A stretch of 64,000 bases of DNA from an uncultured Candidatus Saccharibacteria bacterium (GTDB lineage Bacteria; Patescibacteriota; Minisyncoccia; Phycocordibacterales; CAIZLB01), in the NCBI GenBank assembly GCA_964520545.1, contig CAZFOD010000001.1:57969-121968 (forward strand), in the 5' to 3' direction. Under the pieces are notes generated by a model, which saw only the letters and a program-made list of their open reading frames with translations, was not told the origin of the DNA and did not search any database. Below, piece after piece: positions 1 to 63,079 of this stretch. The position numbers and the translations under genes were made by a program. Every line of letters starts with the position of its first letter. Within the stretch, counting starts at the first letter, position 1.

Positions 1-401
1 CCCCATGATCCCCCTTCTCAAGCGGTGCGTCGCTGGGAGAAGGGGGATAAAATCCCCTTAGTCATTTTTGTCCGAATGTAACTCGTATTCCAGCGCCTGG
101 CCAGCGTAAAGGAGCGAGTGAGGACTGCAGACTGAGGATACTTCGAACCATCACTATTGATAATTCAAATCCGCGATCGCTTGCGATCGTAAATTGGAAT
201 GAAGGTTTGCGGAGCGTGTCTCTCCGTTTCACCTCACGATTCAGTAAGGCTGCATAGCATGACCTATGCCCACCTGCTGAAAAGTGAAAGAAGAATGTTG
301 TGCCAACTACATTCATGTCGCGAGGGACGCACCCCCTCTGCGGAAAGCCATTTAGTTCTTTCGAAAAATATATATGGAGTATGAGTTTACAAAACCCTGC
401 T

Positions 402-460
402 CCGTACTGTCCGAGAATGTAGTTCTCGCTGATGAGCTCAAAAGAGCGAAACAGAATGTT
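402..460 (+). ncRNA. Hammerhead ribozyme (type III), copy 1. Stem I hairpin cgagaa-UGUAG-ttctcg (412-428), core CUGAUGA (429-435), stem II gctc-AAAA-gagc (436-447), GAAA (448-451). Stem III is 402-410 paired with 452-458. GUC cleavage triplet 409-411, predicted cut after C411
   Basis: All 11 invariant core nucleotides are present in the correct order and spacing (CUGAUGA...GAAA). A G10.1-C11.1 pair closes stem II. U410 can pair with A451, and the canonical GUC^ cleavage site is present. The stems covary with copy 2. Confidence 0.8.
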
Positions 461-484
461 CTTAAAAAGTAAGTTGTTTGGTTC

Positions 485-757
485 GTGCAATATGTCTGCA
501 ATTATTTGTCGATATATTGCATGAACCAAGTACTTCGTTTCTTGTTCGGCTCCCCGCAACGGGTCCTCACCACTGGAATCATAGGGTTCGTGGTGTGGGG
601 GATGGTAGACCCACGGTCGGTGAGCTTGCTCATCGCACTATGCTGGAATAATTTCTGGGAGGCTTTCGGGCCACTGTTCCAGATCTTGTTGCAACTCTTC
701 ATCGTGTGTGGAGTGATTTGGCTCTTTGTAAAAAGCCTTTTCAAGAAAACAAAATAG
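485..757 (+). CDS. Hypothetical small hydrophobic protein (90 aa, 2-3 predicted TM helices) encoded inside the ribozyme-bounded fragment. No recognisable RBS
   Basis: ORF track only. The translation is hydrophobic and Trp-rich. No SD-like sequence lies upstream, so this may be non-coding RNA instead. Confidence 0.25.
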   Translation: MQYVCNYLSIYCMNQVLRFLFGSPQRVLTTGIIGFVVWGMVDPRSVSLLIALCWNNFWEAFGPLFQILLQLFIVCGVIWLFVKSLFKKTK

Positions 758-882
758 AAGCTTACAACTTCCAGGTAGAAAAAAACTTCCTGCAACCAAA
801 CCAAATTGATTCGGCTTCGCACTGGCGGATCGCTTGTGCGGGTAGCGTGGCCACTCGGTCGACGCTTTGAACAGTCACTCGA

Positions 883-944
883 CTGTTCTCCTCTCGGAGT
901 GTAGCTCCGACTGATGAGTCCAAAAGGACGAAAGGAAAAAGCGG
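883..944 (+). ncRNA. Hammerhead ribozyme (type III), copy 2. Stem I tcggag-UGUAG-ctccga (894-910), core CUGAUGA (911-917), stem II gtcc-AAAA-ggac (918-929), GAAA (930-933). Stem III is 885-892 paired with 933-941 (imperfect). CUC triplet, predicted cut after C893
   Basis: Same invariant core as copy 1. Stems I and II carry different sequences from copy 1, but every change is compensatory (cgagaa/ttctcg versus tcggag/ctccga; gctc/gagc versus gtcc/ggac). Loops UGUAG and AAAA are identical in both copies. Confidence 0.8.
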
Positions 945-1071
945 CAAATATATTTTCTTAAAAGTACTCACAAGGCCCCAATTTTACGTGCATAGAACAT
1001 TGACAAATCAATAATCATGTGCTAGGTTTCGATCAGGAATTTCAACCAAAACACAAGCTTTTTGACAATCT

Positions 1072-1365
1072 ATGAAAGACTACTACGCCACCCTAGGTGT
1101 TTCCCGACAGGCGTCAATTAATGATATCCGGAAGGCCTTTTGGGGCATCTCCCGGGAACATCATCCTGACGTTGCAAAAGACAAAGCGACTTCCGAAGAA
1201 AAATTCAAGGAAGCAAACGAAGCCAACGCAATACTTAGCGATCCGGAGAGACGTAGGGAATATGATGAGGCGCTCAGTAAAGCACTCATCACTGACTTAC
1301 CTTCTTCGGTCGCTCAAGTTGTCGGAGAATACTTCCGGCAATTCCATCCCGAAAACACAAAATGA
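1072..1365 (+). CDS. J-domain (DnaJ N-terminal domain) protein, 97 aa, with HPD motif
   Basis: KDYYATLGV...IRKAF..ISREHHPD...KFKEANEAYAILSDPERRREYD is a canonical J-domain with the HPD tripeptide. Local GC is higher than the genome background. Confidence 0.75.
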   Translation: MKDYYATLGVSRQASINDIRKAFWGISREHHPDVAKDKATSEEKFKEANEANAILSDPERRREYDEALSKALITDLPSSVAQVVGEYFRQFHPENTK

Positions 1366-1778
1366 CCCAAACAAAACTTAAAGAGCAACTCGCAGAATTG
1401 ATCCAGCTCGTCGATGCCTTTTTCAAGCGCGACACCGTGATCAGAGCTCGAGCTAGCTTCAACAGCCACCGTGCAGAAGTCCTCAAGCAAATCCCCGAAA
1501 TGGGTGAACTGCTCAGGGAATATCCTGCATATGGAGCTATCGCATTCCTGGGAAGATTCAAATTCACAGAGTGTGCCGAAGTCGATTCGCTCGCGAAGGA
1601 GAGCAGTGCACAATTACTGCAAACTATTCGCGACAAAAAGGTTGTTCAGTTGGAAGAAACTGCTCGGCCTGCCTGGTCCTTTCTCCTAGAGAGTGACATG
1701 GAAGCGTCCTGCGCTATCCTTGCTCTTTGCTTTATGGCAAGAAAGAACGCCAAGATTAAACAGGCACTTGTTGCCTAA
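1362..1778 (+). CDS. Hypothetical protein (138 aa), translationally coupled to the J-domain gene through an ATGA overlap
   Basis: ORF in a high-GC island with the start overlapping the upstream stop. No recognisable motif. Confidence 0.5.
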   Translation: MTQTKLKEQLAELIQLVDAFFKRDTVIRARASFNSHRAEVLKQIPEMGELLREYPAYGAIAFLGRFKFTECAEVDSLAKESSAQLLQTIRDKKVVQLEETARPAWSFLLESDMEASCAILALCFMARKNAKIKQALVA

Positions 1779-1804
1779 ACCACAAAACCAACCCAACAGA
1801 AATT

Positions 1805-2524
1805 ATGATCCAAATCGATGCTCTCGCAATCCGCGCGGCAGTAAACAGCGGCGACCTTCGGGCCGCCGAACACCAACTCGCCCTCATCGGCGATACGGTA
1901 GGTGATGATCAGCTCGCGCTGGTCGTAAAAGACCTCACTCCTGGCGAGGTAATGACCCTCGTCGGCGAAGGTGACTACTCGAAACCTTCGTTAGTCGTAC
2001 ACTTCATCTCCGCGGAGCAATTCCTCGGGGCTCTTGTACGCATTGGAGCAAAGTGGGGAAGAATCGGGGATAAGGACGATTACGGTCGCTTCCTCGGTGA
2101 ACTCACAGATCTTTTCCTTTCTGTTTTGCTCGTCATCGAGCCGCAGAAACGGAGGGAGCTACTGACCGCACTCATCGAGCACACCCTCGGTATGCGTTCG
2201 CTCATTTGTGTTGCGATCAGCGTCAAGGAGTACCTCCTGGACTATGATTCGCGCGCAGCTGAGCACGGCACCGTCGGCGAGTTGATGACATTTCTTGAGG
2301 ATGTTGATTACGACGCGTTCGTGACTATCCAAAAGAAGATTGCTTCGATGTGCCTCGAAAATGCTGAAGTGCATCTCGCCGAAGAAGGCGAAGAGTCAAT
2401 CAGCGAAAAACGGTGCCGTTGGTATCAGCGCCGTACATTGAACGCCCTTGTCGATGCCGCCATGAGGCTGGTCGAAAGCAAGCAACCCGAAGCTCCAAAA
2501 GACGAAATCTTCGGAGACGTTTAG
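1805..2524 (+). CDS. Hypothetical protein (239 aa), acidic
   Basis: ORF with protein-like composition in the high-GC island. No recognisable motif. Confidence 0.5.
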   Translation: MIQIDALAIRAAVNSGDLRAAEHQLALIGDTVGDDQLALVVKDLTPGEVMTLVGEGDYSKPSLVVHFISAEQFLGALVRIGAKWGRIGDKDDYGRFLGELTDLFLSVLLVIEPQKRRELLTALIEHTLGMRSLICVAISVKEYLLDYDSRAAEHGTVGELMTFLEDVDYDAFVTIQKKIASMCLENAEVHLAEEGEESISEKRCRWYQRRTLNALVDAAMRLVESKQPEAPKDEIFGDV

Positions 2525-2579
2525 CCAACCGAAACCCGCCCCGGCCGTTGAAAACACGGCCGGGGCATATCTTTACGAA

Positions 2580-3515
2580 ATGGAAACAACATTAGCAGTT
2601 ATCGAAGATCGTCATCCGATCACTGTGGCGATAGCTTGGGCTATTAAGCTTGAGTTGGTCACACCAGCTGGTGAGCAAACACTCATTGCGGATATGCAAG
2701 AGACGGTAACGGAGGCGACGAAGAAATTTGTCAATTTCGTCAATGTTGAATCGGTGCGTCAAGCACTCGATATCACCTTGGGTGTTCTCAGTTTGCCAGT
2801 CGCTCACTCGACGGGTGGAAAAATTAACCCTGAGGCGTGGGCGCAATACTTGCACGGTCGTAGCCTAAAAAAATTGGTTGCGGAAGCGCTCGCGCTGGTT
2901 AAGCCCATTGCGAATGCCCCGTTCGAGGCACAGTTCGAGGAATTCATCCCCGAAGAAGGGGCGTTAAGGAAGACCCTCATAGGGTATGCAACAGCTCGTG
3001 ATAAGAGTAGGAAAAACGTTTGGGCTGGATATGTGGATTTCTCCAGGGATCTTCACAGACAACAAGTTGGCGAGAAACGAAAAGAACTCGCTGACTGGCT
3101 CACTCGTGAATTGTTGAATTGTAGTTCTGAACATTGGTTCAGAGCTCAAATCCGAAAAGCTGGGAACAGTGATAACCCACCTAGCGTTCACGAGACAATC
3201 AACACGCTGATCCTACGGCACTGCTGCGGGTTATCAGTTAGTGGGAAGATCGAAGTGAAGAAGATGCAGTTCGAATGGTTACGAGAAGCTTTTGAAGCAG
3301 ACAAAGCCGTTTGGGTCGCGAAAGTTCGTCTGAAATATGACGCACTTTTCACTCGGATTCCAAAAGAACTCCGACAGTATCTTCTGCACACAGGTGGTGA
3401 CAAGTGGTTCAGTATCTACCTTTCTAAGGGTCCTCCCAAGGTCCCGAAGAAGTGGAACGATGCTGAATTACCGGGAATTACCGGTGTCTTCAGCTTCGAA
3501 ATGTTTGAGGATTAG
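2580..3515 (+). CDS. Hypothetical protein (311 aa)
   Basis: Long ORF in the high-GC island followed by an intrinsic terminator. No recognisable motif. Confidence 0.55.
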   Translation: METTLAVIEDRHPITVAIAWAIKLELVTPAGEQTLIADMQETVTEATKKFVNFVNVESVRQALDITLGVLSLPVAHSTGGKINPEAWAQYLHGRSLKKLVAEALALVKPIANAPFEAQFEEFIPEEGALRKTLIGYATARDKSRKNVWAGYVDFSRDLHRQQVGEKRKELADWLTRELLNCSSEHWFRAQIRKAGNSDNPPSVHETINTLILRHCCGLSVSGKIEVKKMQFEWLREAFEADKAVWVAKVRLKYDALFTRIPKELRQYLLHTGGDKWFSIYLSKGPPKVPKKWNDAELPGITGVFSFEMFED

Positions 3516-5178: not shown

Positions 5179-6414
5179 TTAAGCAGATGCTTCTTCTGTT
5201 GTAACCTCTTCCTTTGTGTCAGCTGTCTCAAGAGTTTCAATTCTTTCTTCAGGTTTTACATCAGCATTTATCTCATCAACTTCTCCAGAGTCGGCGACAA
5301 CACCTTTCACTGATTGGATATCAATTCTCCAGCCTGTAAGTTTAGCTGCAAGTCGAACATTCTGTCCTCCCTTACCGATTGCGAGTGACTGCTGATCTTC
5401 TGCAACCTCAACAACCGCAGTCTTTTCTGTTTCGTTAAGTTTAATATCAATGACTTTTGCAGGAGAAAGAGATTCTTTGATGAATTCTGCTGCATCTTCT
5501 GACCATTCGATGATATCAATTTTCTCACCACCGAGTTCACTTGTTACTGTGTTTACTCGAACACCACGCTGTCCAACCATTGATCCTACTGGATCAATGT
5601 GAGAATCAGCAGCAAATACAGCAATCTTAGATCGAGCACCAGCTTCACGTGCAATCGCTTTTACTTCAACAGCACCAGAAACAATTTCTGGAACTTCAAT
5701 CTTGAAAAGTTCTGAGAGGAACTTTGGGTGTGAGCGTGATAGTCGAAGGAAAATACCTCGAGGTGTTTCTTCTACACGCATGAGGTACATTCGAAGTCTT
5801 TCACCTTGTCGGTAGTGTTCACCAGGGATTTGTTCTTCATATGGGAGCATTCCAGTAGCTCGGCCCATGTCGATGAAGACATTTCCTCGCTCTTGTCGCT
5901 GTACTGTTCCTGAAATGATTTCTCCTTCTCGCTTTCCGAATTCACCAAGGACAGAAACCTTTTCAGCTTCTCGAATCTTCTGGATGATGACCTGCTTTGC
6001 AGTTTGTGCGGCGATTCGGCCGTAATCTTCCTTTTCTTCAAGAGGAAAGACCATTTCTTCGGCAACCTGAACGTCTTTTTTGATCTTTCGAGCGTTATCA
6101 ATGAGGATATGTCGCTCTTCGTTGAAGAATACCTTCTCGTCAGTAGTTGGTTCTGCTCCTTCTACAGGGGTAGGGAGTTCACTCTCATCAAAAACTACCT
6201 GATCTGGGTCCACAACGATCTTTACCTGGTAAAAATCAGCCTTACCTGTATTTATATCGAATTTAGCCCGTACAAACTGGTCGCGTCGGCCCCATTCCTT
6301 CTTGTATGCAGTAGCTAGAGCCATTTCAATTGCCTCAAGAATCTTTTCACGAGGAATACCCCGCTCTTCTTCAAGCTGATCTAATACTGAGTGAATTACT
6401 TTAAGATCTATCAT
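5179..6414 (-). CDS. nusA: Transcription termination/antitermination factor NusA (S1 plus KH domains, acidic C-terminal tail)
   Basis: The N-terminal MIDLKVIHSVLDQLEEERGIP and the S1/KH region architecture match NusA. 411 aa. Confidence 0.85.
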   Translation of the reverse strand: MIDLKVIHSVLDQLEEERGIPREKILEAIEMALATAYKKEWGRRDQFVRAKFDINTGKADFYQVKIVVDPDQVVFDESELPTPVEGAEPTTDEKVFFNEERHILIDNARKIKKDVQVAEEMVFPLEEKEDYGRIAAQTAKQVIIQKIREAEKVSVLGEFGKREGEIISGTVQRQERGNVFIDMGRATGMLPYEEQIPGEHYRQGERLRMYLMRVEETPRGIFLRLSRSHPKFLSELFKIEVPEIVSGAVEVKAIAREAGARSKIAVFAADSHIDPVGSMVGQRGVRVNTVTSELGGEKIDIIEWSEDAAEFIKESLSPAKVIDIKLNETEKTAVVEVAEDQQSLAIGKGGQNVRLAAKLTGWRIDIQSVKGVVADSGEVDEINADVKPEERIETLETADTKEEVTTEEASA

Positions 6415-41835: not shown

Positions 41836-43107
41836 ATGAATACATTCTTTTCAAAGATAAAATCACTTTTTTCAGACAGGACTCTTCGAAATCGAACATT
41901 GTTCGTTATCGGAGCTCTTATTGTTTTTAGACTCCTTGCGGTAGTTCCAATTCCTGGAGTTGACGAAGCGGCCCTTGCTCAGTTTTTGAACGGAAATCAG
42001 TTTTTTGGACTTCTTAATATTTTCTCTGGAGGAGGGCTTTCAACTCTCTCAATCGTTATGCTCGGTGTCGGTCCTTACATTACGGCTTCCATCATCATGC
42101 AGCTCGTTACGATGATGTCAGACAGAATGAAGGCTATGTATCAGGAAGATGGTGAGGCGGGAAGAAGGAAGTTTAATCAATACACTCGACTCATTACTGT
42201 TCCTCTCGCGTTTGTTCAGGCATTCGCGTTTATCGTTATTCTTCAGAGACAAGGTATTGTTGCTAATCTAGAGACTTTTGATCTCGTTCGGAACGTAATG
42301 GTTATCGTTACAGGCTCAATTCTTCTTATGTGGATTGGAGAACTTATGACAGAGTTCGGTATCGGTAACGGTCTTTCAATGATTATCTTTGCAGGTATAG
42401 TCTCAGGGCTTCCTCAGGCTATTGGGCAGCTTCGAGTGATTTACGATCCAGCTCAGCTTCCTCTGTACATTGGCTTGTTGGTTGCGGCAATTGTTGTAAT
42501 CTACGCTGTTGTATTCATAACGGAGGCAGAGCGACCAATCCCTGTTACTTATGCAAAGCAGGTTCGTGGTGGAAAGGTGTATGGTGGAGCTTCTACATAT
42601 CTTCCTCTTCGACTTAACCAGGCTGGAGTTATTCCAATCATCTTCGCCCTCTCTATACTTCTCTTGCCTCAGATGCTTTTCAACCTACTGTCATATGCTA
42701 ACAATGTGACTATTGCTCGAATTTCAGTTGCTGTATCTGACTTCATGGCTAACCCATGGCTCTATGCTCTTGCATACTTCATTCTTGTATTCCTCTTCAC
42801 ATTCTTCTACACAGCTGTTACGTTCGATCCACAGTCAATTTCAACCAACCTTCAGAAGAATGGAGCTTTCATTCCTGGTGTTCGTCCTGGCGACCCTACA
42901 TCAGTTCACTTGAGCAAGGTGGTTACTCGAATCACACTTGTTGGAGCACTCTTCCTTGGTATCATCGCGGTTCTTCCTCCTGTTGTTCATGCCCTTACAG
43001 GTATTCAGCAGATTACTCTCGGAGGTACAGCGCTCCTCATCGTGGTACAGGTTGTTCTCGACATCGTAAAGAAAGTCGACGCTCAGTTAGCAATGCGAGA
43101 ATATTAA
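41836..43107 (+). CDS. secY: Preprotein translocase subunit SecY
   Basis: 10-TM SecY family, 423 aa. Confidence 0.95.
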   Translation: MNTFFSKIKSLFSDRTLRNRTLFVIGALIVFRLLAVVPIPGVDEAALAQFLNGNQFFGLLNIFSGGGLSTLSIVMLGVGPYITASIIMQLVTMMSDRMKAMYQEDGEAGRRKFNQYTRLITVPLAFVQAFAFIVILQRQGIVANLETFDLVRNVMVIVTGSILLMWIGELMTEFGIGNGLSMIIFAGIVSGLPQAIGQLRVIYDPAQLPLYIGLLVAAIVVIYAVVFITEAERPIPVTYAKQVRGGKVYGGASTYLPLRLNQAGVIPIIFALSILLLPQMLFNLLSYANNVTIARISVAVSDFMANPWLYALAYFILVFLFTFFYTAVTFDPQSISTNLQKNGAFIPGVRPGDPTSVHLSKVVTRITLVGALFLGIIAVLPPVVHALTGIQQITLGGTALLIVVQVVLDIVKKVDAQLAMREY

Positions 43108-43179
43108 TATCTCCATATTAGAATATTGAAATGGCTCCGAAAGGAGCCTTTTCTTTTTGCGTGATATGATATTAATACT

Positions 43180-62668: not shown

Positions 62669-62676
62669 TTGATGTG

Positions 62677-63079
62677 TGGAGATGCCGGGAATCGAACCCG
62701 GGTGCAGGTGAGTTTCTTAGATGAATCTACGCGACGTAGAGGGTCTTTGCGGCAGAGCCGTTTTAAAGTTCGTTACTAGAAGACAGACAAAACGTAACGA
62801 ACCCGAGCTTTATGGTTTCGGCGGACGATTAAAGCAAATCGTCAACCTATTCTGAATATATACCACCGGCAGTTCTGCTTCAGAAAGACAGAACTGTGAT
62901 GTCGCTAGGCGTGGAGCGTTAGGCTCGGGCTGTTGCGAAGGCGAAGTCCTTCACCGCAAAAAACGGAGAAGCTACCGCTTGTCGTGCTTTAGCACTTAAG
63001 GGTTCCAGCAGTTTTACTAGTTACTGGAGCTAGATCGCGCACAAAGAAGAAATGACACTTGTCGAAGCCAATCATCCCC
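62677..63079 (-). ncRNA. ssrA: tmRNA (transfer-messenger RNA), about 403 nt, immediately downstream of smpB
   Basis: 5' GGGGAUGAUUGGCUUCGACA (tmRNA 5' consensus). Acceptor stem GGGGAUG/CAUCUCC with the G3-U70 alanine identity pair. 3' T-arm GGGUUCGAUUCCCGG, then discriminator A. An internal tag-like frame ends at UAA. Confidence 0.85.

Follow-up and report, generated by a model that had tools for sequence, protein, structure and literature searches.

Introduction

Hammerhead ribozymes that flank genes in tandem have been known since 2011. Such arrays cleave in vitro and in vivo, and cleavage was demonstrated for three of them (PMC3088659). Described examples include the triple array at ardA of Agrobacterium tumefaciens and the arrays of Clostridium scindens and Azorhizobium caulinodans; circles or spliced products were not detected (PMC3088659). 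A related arrangement is RiboJ, in which the sTRSV hammerhead is combined with a 23-nucleotide (nt) hairpin. RiboJ standardises 5′ ends, frees expression from the influence of the upstream sequence, and can increase the amount of mRNA (PMC6206723). Here, we analyse two hammerheads, HH1 and HH2, in a 64,000-nt stretch of DNA from an uncultured Candidatus Saccharibacteria bacterium (contig CAZFOD010000001.1, positions 57,969 to 121,968 of the forward strand), which we call the window. A sequence-only reading of this stretch had described them as a tandem pair. Both motifs were confirmed; what that reading had missed is a larger array of three or four ribozymes in an operon that begins outside the window. 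As gene-flanking hammerhead arrays are already known, the locus is an unusual setting and not a new kind of element.

Results

Sequence and fold of the two ribozymes

Window 404-457, + strand: HH1, hammerhead type III, predicted cut between C411 and C412, 73.5 bits with the R1 model.
Window 886-939, + strand: HH2, hammerhead type III, predicted cut between C893 and U894, 75.8 bits with the R1 model.

HH1: Stem III is formed by CUGU (407-410) and ACAG (451-454), and the cleavage-site nucleotide is C411. Stem I consists of CGAGAA (412-417) and UUCUCG (423-428) around the loop UGUAG and leads into the CUGAUGA core at 429-435. Positions 436-447 form stem II (GCUC-AAAA-GAGC), and GAAA occupies 448-451. 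The A15.1-U16.1 pair is U410/A451.

HH2: The cleavage triplet is CUC at 891-893, and stem I is UCGGAG (894-899)-UGUAG-CUCCGA (905-910). The core CUGAUGA occupies 911-917, stem II is GUCC-AAAA-GGAC (918-929), and GAAA follows at 930-933. Here, the A15.1-U16.1 pair is U892/A933.

The invariant core (C3-U4-G5-A6-N7-G8-A9, G12-A13-A14, A15.1-U16.1, and an H17 that is not G) is complete in both copies and is surrounded by three helices. Stems I (6 bp) and II (4 bp) are closed by loops and stem III is open, hence the type III topology. Stem III is short, with four contiguous pairs, then a mismatch, and then two more pairs. Stem II GUCC/GGAC and stem III CUGU/ACAG resemble the classic sTRSV ribozyme. 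The sequence-only reading had claimed a complete type III core, the loops, and C cleavage sites for both copies, and all of these sequence details proved correct. We consider the assignment solid: by their sequence, HH1 and HH2 qualify as bona fide type III hammerheads, for which self-cleavage is predicted.

Model scores and family covariation

The bare pattern CTGATGA-N8-38-CGAAA occurs twice in the window at an expectation of 0.67. As 15 of 100 shuffles also reached at least two occurrences, the pattern alone is weak evidence. The Rfam model RF00008 (Hammerhead_3) aligns end to end with both copies (model positions 1-54), scoring 42.7 bits for HH1 (E 6.1e-6) and 38.9 bits for HH2 (E 6.9e-5) over the whole 64 kb, and the Rfam scan gave no further ribozyme match in the window. 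Both scores lie under the gathering score of 48.5 bits, so a default Rfam scan shows neither copy; at gathering thresholds, only a tmRNA was reported for the whole window. The sequence-only reading had named bit scores below the gathering threshold as grounds for abandoning the pair. The scores do fall below it, but the matches are full-length and have the low E values given above. Nearly all clear relatives likewise score 34-48 bits on RF00008 because the loop II of this family is a short AAAA; one copy at an orthologous locus reaches 50.4 bits. The gathering score is thus too strict here, and we rejected the sub-threshold score as a refutation.

Among reference genomes, a pattern search gave 7 loci, 4 of which are titled Paceibacterota, Parcubacteria or Patescibacteria. 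With a looser pattern, at least 120 matches were obtained in metagenomes and at least 120 in viral contigs; counts for the family, here and below, are counts among the matches listed. A covariance model built from 12 copies gave 125 matches in the first 100 loci (designated by L numbers) and 41 in the other 28 loci plus the window, and about 160 relatives of HH1 and HH2 are found in this way. For the 125 first-batch matches, 91% of the cells are paired (99% in stems I and II), double changes occur in 15 of 17 pairs, and the covariation score is 0.789 compared with 0.203 for shuffled alignments and 0.06-0.13 for slid registers, although these figures are somewhat flattered as the alignment was fitted to the model. 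The loops UGUAG (stem I) and AAAA (stem II) are conserved in the family. The stem differences between HH1 and HH2, which had been read earlier as structural covariation, are the same changes that are seen family-wide.

The Rfam scores under the gathering threshold and the lack of significance of the simple pattern might suggest that HH1 and HH2 are chance or decayed look-alikes without activity. Against this stand the presence of every invariant core position, the strong family covariation, and the comparison with sister strains described below, in which HH2 is perfectly kept beside a diverged flank and HH1 carries a compensatory change. An origin by chance or decay is therefore scarcely credible.

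The array and its operon

The locus on the source contig is L008 (20 kb), in which the window position equals the L008 position minus 8929. It contains the following features.

L008 4388-5140, + strand: gene of a TrmB-family winged-helix regulator, upstream of the window.
L008 about 5856-5884, + strand: sigma-70 promoter TTGACA-17-TATAAT (perfect consensus), about 3.5 kb upstream of HH1 and outside the window.
L008, between the promoter and the third hammerhead, + strand: 15-codon open reading frame (ORF) MTYTVNKRGEVIVLK with the strong ribosome-binding site GAAAGGAG.
L008 6198-6251, + strand: third hammerhead, 3.1 kb upstream of HH1 and ahead of the Ro60 gene.
L008 6362-8206, + strand: Ro60/TROVE-vWA gene, 614 amino acids (aa), PF05731 and PF25045, outside the window.
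L008 8207-9332, + strand: 1.1-kb structured non-coding stretch with two diverged modules of about 435 nt after Ro60.
Window 1072-3515, + strand: four-gene block encoding a J-domain protein of 97 aa (1072-1365), then proteins of 138, 239, and 311 aa.

The order on the + strand is TrmB gene, promoter, 15-codon ORF, third hammerhead, Ro60, the 1.1-kb non-coding stretch, HH1, a 482-nt unit, HH2, and the four-gene block. A hairpin with arms of 22 nt lies behind the third hammerhead, just ahead of the Ro60 start. No + strand promoter-like site was found between window position 1 and the J-domain gene, and no promoter of its own was detected for the four-gene block. The region from the promoter to the Ro60 start (L008 5856-6360) corresponds to window positions of about -3070 to -2570. 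The window starts within a stretch of higher GC content (47-52% versus about 41%).

Arrays of this kind recur in the family. At least two hammerheads occur in 23 of 128 loci, nearly always on the same strand and with a spacing of 214 to about 4000 nt. Related loci have up to four same-strand hammerheads, which flank single genes or short non-coding RNAs. Some of the gaps between hammerheads are filled by one complete ORF (330 aa in 1041 nt, 271 aa in 983 nt, 135 aa in 459 nt, and 73 aa in 280 nt), and others are without any ORF (L103, with gaps of 159 and 283 nt, L063, and L082).

A TrmB homologue with up to 63% identity lies beside hammerheads in 12 loci (L029, L103, L013/L077, L083, L080, L109, L005, L066, L082, L017, and L001 besides L008). 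It also adjoins hammerhead-less Ro60 genes in at least three other candidate-phyla contigs, including L131 and L132. Apart from TrmB, no homologues of the island proteins were found in other hammerhead loci, hence the cargo is variable; elsewhere, it includes a histidine phosphatase, small RNA-polymerase-alpha-CTD-like proteins, a MoxR ATPase, and a weak STIV B116-like match. The layout of regulator, promoter, short leader ORF, and hammerhead was present in all four loci read base by base (L008, L103, L029, and L005). In L103 and L029, a short leader ORF beginning with MTY.. or MIY.. is likewise found ahead of the first hammerhead, and L005 has two related ones (MAMYDEVRCRGQP and MTMYNQVRCRGQP). 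The TrmB-family protein appears to regulate a variable accessory operon.

Three observations on other loci may be added. In L082 (1380-3282), nusA and ppa genes that by eye are similar to the window copies stand immediately downstream of a locus with hammerhead and TrmB; related genomes may thus keep the accessory operon at the same chromosomal site. In the TrmB-linked operon of L029, a 70-nt element (2959-3028) about 280 nt past the hammerhead scores 65 bits with the tmRNA model, which is above gathering. It matches via its tRNA-like ends only (GGGGUGACUUGGUUUCGAC ... GGGGUUCGACUCCCCACACCUCCA) and is a tmRNA-like tRNA mimic that lacks the coding part. L119 (1-2022; metagenome contig JAAOEH010007131.1) consists of a 1158-nt head-to-tail unit with 97% identity at offset 1158 and has hammerheads on both strands, a layout as expected of a viroid-like or other rolling-circle element that was assembled as more than one unit.

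Cassette turnover between sister strains

Related strains were reached by two routes: L129 via the sole database homologue of the small ORF in the 482-nt unit, L134 and L135 via the Ro60 neighbour.

L129: Both ribozymes are retained, 482 nt apart. In HH1, stem II is changed from GCUC/GAGC to GCCC/GGGC, which is a compensatory double substitution. HH2 is 100% identical in L129 and L134. The identity of 91% between L129 and the window locus ends at the last base of HH2, and past this point L129 continues with sequence unrelated to the window, a small gene of another kind, and a further hammerhead.

L134: Synteny extends from the TrmB gene to nusA, and the locus contains both ribozymes, with four hammerheads in the same operon. 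Relative to the window, it has an insert.

L134 8915-9891 (versus window 472-478): extra 977-nt cassette, inserted between the post-HH1 GUUCUU motif and the hairpin at 478.

The insert comprises a hairpin, a non-coding RNA, a 97-aa Zn-ribbon-like ORF, and the fourth hammerhead, which has an extended stem II and a total length of 70 nt. The 97-aa protein (CxxC...HKPCGE) recurs with 49% identity in L083, a TrmB-hammerhead locus. By eye, a possible 46-codon basic ORF may also be read in the insert.

The sequence-only reading would have given up the pair had it been absent from related genomes with an otherwise conserved region. Since both motifs are kept in L129 and L134, no refutation arises from the relatives. 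The ribozyme-bounded units behave as exchangeable cassettes that are gained, lost, and swapped between strains. The 482-nt RNA is therefore no fixed entity.

The 482-nt unit

Window 521-757, + strand: small hydrophobic ORF, probably a protein gene; a start at ATG 521 gives 78 aa, one at GTG 485 gives 90 aa.
Window 478-529, + strand: 24-bp hairpin with arms 83% complementary, the 3′ arm containing ATG 521.
Window 869-888, + strand: 8-bp hairpin GAACAGUC-ACUC-GACUGUUC, read from the sequence and present in the fold.

The segment between the predicted cuts is 412-893. Its span of 482 nt, the 90-codon ORF within it, and the J-domain gene downstream are all present as the sequence-only reading had claimed. 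Compared with shuffles, the unit folds with z = -6.3, much of it owing to the hairpin at 478-529. The hairpin at 869-888 would form the end of the released RNA, five bases ahead of the HH2 cut.

The 78-aa ORF has two hydrophobic segments. It has one database homologue (P0001, 93% identity) and gave no Pfam, PHROG or other family match. In the three-strain comparison, 8 of the 13 variable sites are at codon position 3 (binomial p = 0.035), and the changes are synonymous at 7 sites and conservative at 6. Long open frames occur on the opposite strand as well. Taken together, the sequence gives modest support to a real small membrane protein.

It had also been suggested that the 482-nt RNA becomes a circle in the manner of retrozymes, with an RtcB-type ligase closing the product of double cleavage. 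The ends of hammerhead products (5′-OH and 2′,3′-cyclic phosphate) are RtcB substrates, and this chemistry suits the proposal, as do the strong structure of the fragment and the Ro60 gene in the same operon. However, joining 893 to 412 would bring the 5′ strand of HH2 against the 3′ strand of HH1 and leave stem III with 3 of 7 pairs, none of them contiguous. The stems III of HH1 and HH2 are thus not interchangeable, and a circle would be without a working hammerhead and not ligatable by the ribozyme. The predicted fold also puts the two ends in separate local hairpins and not next to each other. No RtcB is found among the called genes of the 20-kb L008, and a crude motif test of the window ORFs for the HSGSRG-type signature gave one spurious match beside a stop codon and no RtcB. 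Moreover, the unit is not conserved, being 640 nt long with different 5′ content in L134, and is probably protein-coding; comparable arrays were searched for circles and none were detected (PMC3088659). Nothing here favours a circular RNA from the 482-nt unit; the proposal is unsupported, and we judge it very unlikely.

Ro60 and the structured modules

Window 1-403, + strand: 3′ part of the 1.1-kb stretch (second module), recognised by repeat blocks D2, D4, and D5 and by pairwise alignment.
Window 41-59, + strand: terminator-like hairpin with a U-rich tail, family D4, conserved in both modules.

The Ro60 protein matches NF041674 with E 2e-32, which is under the equivalog cut-off. The two modules behind its gene share the blocks CCCTTAGT(T)CATTTTTGTC and GAGGACYGC.GACTGAGGWTACTTCGAAC. 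Among three close relatives, compensatory double changes occur at 11 base pairs in several module hairpins, and one 200-nt module stretch is 100% identical in three strains. The 435-nt modules are candidate Ro60 partner RNAs. No Rfam Y RNA family, YrlA included, matched L008 3000-12600 at E ≤ 1, and no tRNA-like or other known RNA was found in the non-coding stretches of the locus.

The ribozymes might mainly free structured non-coding RNAs (the 1.1-kb region and perhaps the 482-nt piece) as Y-RNA-like partners of Ro60, with mRNA processing being secondary. The Ro60 gene with its TROVE and vWA parts lies immediately upstream, the two tandem diverged modules recall the paired Y RNA genes beside bacterial rsr, and several of the hairpins show compensatory changes. 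In addition, hammerhead-bounded segments without an ORF exist in L103, L063, and L082, and one locus has the tmRNA-like tRNA mimic after a hammerhead. On the other hand, the search down to E ≤ 1 gave no Rfam Y RNA or YrlA match, and four other candidate-phyla Ro60 loci are free of hammerheads. The codon-position bias favours coding of the 482-nt piece, and most gaps between ribozymes elsewhere contain one ORF. We consider this role unlikely as the main one. A general link between Ro60 and hammerheads was rejected, as neither the covariance model nor Rfam found any ribozyme in the four other loci; the link is thus lineage-specific.

In some bacteria, Ro60 is co-operonic with RtcB, and the operon of Salmonella is composed of rsr-yrlBA-rtcBA. 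It is conceivable, though rather improbable, that the ribozymes release structured RNAs with 5′-OH and cyclic-phosphate ends to Ro60 or an RNA ligase, possibly as circles, and that the modules of hammerhead, GUUCUU, and hairpin form a dedicated, regulator-linked system of cassettes in candidate-phyla bacteria. If true, this would tie self-cleaving ribozymes to the Ro60 RNA-surveillance pathway.

The motif and hairpins behind the ribozymes

Window 458-469, + strand: GUUCUUAAAAAG motif, directly 3′ of HH1 stem III.
Window 355-366, + strand: GTTCTTTCGAAA copy of the motif, with no ribozyme ahead.
Window 954-963, + strand: UUUCUUAAAA, displaced copy of the post-ribozyme motif after HH2.

In L129, the canonical ATGTTCTTTAAA stands immediately after HH2. 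GUUCUU(U/A) lies a few bases past the ribozyme in 25 of 157 copies; the upstream control gave 2 and the 124 viral copies gave none. The next 100 nt after hammerheads of this sub-family fold with a median z of -2.5 versus -0.9 for the other copies. A long hairpin after the ribozyme is often found in the GUUCUU sub-family.

A possible function of the motif is that of a switch: GUUCUUU would pair with loop II and the 3′ strand of stem II (AAAGRRC) and thereby set cleavage or the fate of the RNA. The motif is specific for the sub-family and fixed in position. As read from the sequences, GUUCUU(U/A)..AA is complementary to both stem II variants, G-U pairs included, and could compete with stem II; in some copies, e.g., L103 1127 and HH1, the minimum-energy fold contains the alternative helix. 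Loop II (AAAA) and stem II, restricted to G-Y-Y-C, vary unusually little. In most copies, however, the alternative pairing is not the predicted optimum, and the stem II change in L129 has no matching change of the motif. Loop II AAAA is also just as constant in viral copies without the motif. Hence, we regard regulated switching as improbable.

Downstream genes and other features of the window

The J-domain protein matches AtcJ of NCBIfam with E 1.4e-7 and the 239-aa protein weakly matches AtcB (E 0.005), all under the curated cut-offs. By these matches, the block is similar to AtcJABC, the cold-adaptation operon known from Shewanella, and the gene number and order fit. Past the block follow the convergent housekeeping genes tig, ppa, and nusA. 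The sequence-only reading had expected the pair to separate the upstream transcript from the J-domain operon, which we rate as a reasonable consequence.

There are no phage hallmark genes among the L008 genes. The PHROG scan gave J-domain matches only, PADLOC reported no defence system, and blastn against GenBank phages gave no match. With no supporting match in any of these searches, a prophage or defence-island reading was rejected. In viral contigs, ribozymes of the wider sub-family are abundant (at least 120 matches).

Two further Rfam matches lie at a distance from the array. A tmRNA gene at window 62674-63079 (- strand) reaches 86.5 bits, and its middle part is aligned with low accuracy. 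The histone 3′ stem-loop model at window 43107-43153 (- strand) gives 31.4 bits versus a gathering score of 34 and is probably a chance match.

Discussion

A transcript probably cut into cassettes

We think it probable that HH1 and HH2 cut one polycistronic RNA co-transcriptionally into cassettes. One long + strand RNA would start at the sigma-70 promoter beside the TrmB gene, and HH1, HH2, and the third hammerhead would cut it while it is being made. The predicted pieces are a leader, the Ro60 mRNA with the 1.1-kb structured stretch, a 482-nt RNA as the probable mRNA of the 78-aa membrane protein, and the mRNA of the J-domain four-gene block. Each upstream piece would end in a 2′,3′-cyclic phosphate, which at HH2 would be five bases past the 8-bp hairpin. 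Each downstream piece would start with a 5′-OH and carry the folded ribozyme, GUUCUU, and usually a long hairpin.

Due to the type III topology, nearly the whole ribozyme would remain on the downstream product. A start with 5′-OH, ribozyme, and hairpin would give the cassette a 5′ end that is defined, independent of context, and probably nuclease-resistant. 5′-OH ends and 5′-terminal structure slow 5′-end-dependent decay. By analogy with RiboJ, the ribozymes may thus stabilise and insulate the cassettes, and context-independent expression would suit operons with shuffled cassettes.

Several points weigh against cutting into cassettes. Cleavage and transcription at this locus are predicted from sequence alone, and neither ribozyme reaches the Rfam gathering score. 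Some of the transcription could stop before HH1, at the terminator-like hairpin of 41-59 or at the one 438 nt upstream of it. When HH1 is folded together with its 3′ flank, the ribozyme fold is matched by another of roughly equal stability, and HH2 has no strong hairpin on its 3′ side. The small ORF is without a Shine-Dalgarno sequence, as the sequence-only reading had already stated, and its ATG is buried in the 24-bp hairpin; hence, improved expression is not obvious for the 482-nt cassette.

Significance

As regards the role of hammerheads in bacteria, the locus offers a natural example with three to four ribozymes per operon and swaps exactly at the ribozyme borders. With it, the known range of gene-flanking hammerheads comes to include candidate-phyla bacteria as well as a Ro60 stress operon. 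The motif and hairpin behind the ribozyme mirror an engineered insulator, and the locus yields concrete predictions on cleavage sites, protection of the 5′ end, and cassette-independent expression. Our literature searches returned nothing relevant on hammerheads in candidate-phyla bacteria or with Ro60. The recurrent TrmB regulator and leader ORF, GUUCUU plus hairpin, cassette turnover at ribozyme borders, and AtcJABC-like cargo were not encountered in these searches either.

Comparison with known systems

Retrozymes and the hammerhead circular RNAs of plants and animals (PMC7229834): Two same-strand hammerheads a few hundred nt apart, and ends that suit tRNA ligase or RtcB, are shared with these elements. 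In contrast, the flanking ribozymes here are not copies within direct repeats, and the junction would rebuild no ribozyme, whereas the circles of retrozymes and viroids restore a hammerhead. The unit is probably protein-coding, embedded in an operon, and variable in length between strains.

Viroid and satellite hammerheads of RF00008 (e.g., sTRSV): The core, the open stem III, the 6-bp stem I, and the 4-bp stem II are the same. Here, however, the ribozymes are in chromosomal DNA with no rolling-circle replicon, the loops are AAAA and UGUAG, and the scores are 39-43 bits.

Bacterial rsr-Y RNA loci such as that of Salmonella (for bacterial Y RNAs, PMC4201824): The likeness lies in Ro60 followed by two tandem same-strand structured modules. 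Our locus differs in its hammerhead borders, in the absence of RtcB and RtcA from the neighbourhood, and in giving no match to an Rfam Y RNA. The Y modules there measure about 100-200 nt versus about 435 nt here.

RiboJ (PMC6206723): Both place a hairpin between a type III hammerhead and the gene, and cleavage (in our case, predicted) takes off the upstream RNA and fixes a structured 5′ end. Here, the arrangement is natural, the hairpins are 15-26 bp long with cassette-specific sequence, GUUCUU is an extra element, and an effect on expression is proposed by analogy. Whereas the RiboJ hairpin exposes the ribosome-binding site, the hairpin in the 482-nt unit hides the start codon.

Gene-flanking arrays (Perreault 2011; PMC3088659): As in these arrays, several same-strand intergenic hammerheads lie hundreds to thousands of bases apart and bracket single genes or short blocks of variable identity, and the proposed role is the processing of long transcripts. 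The same-strand clustering is found here with three hammerheads in the operon and four in L134, and the 482-nt gap holds one ORF of 78-90 aa. The differences are a candidate-phyla (Patescibacteria-like) host, the absence of phage genes nearby, and some bounded segments that are non-coding. Further differences are the recurrent TrmB regulator, the leader peptide, and the Ro60 cargo, together with the GUUCUU motif and long hairpin, of which the motif alone was counted and found in none of the 124 listed viral copies.

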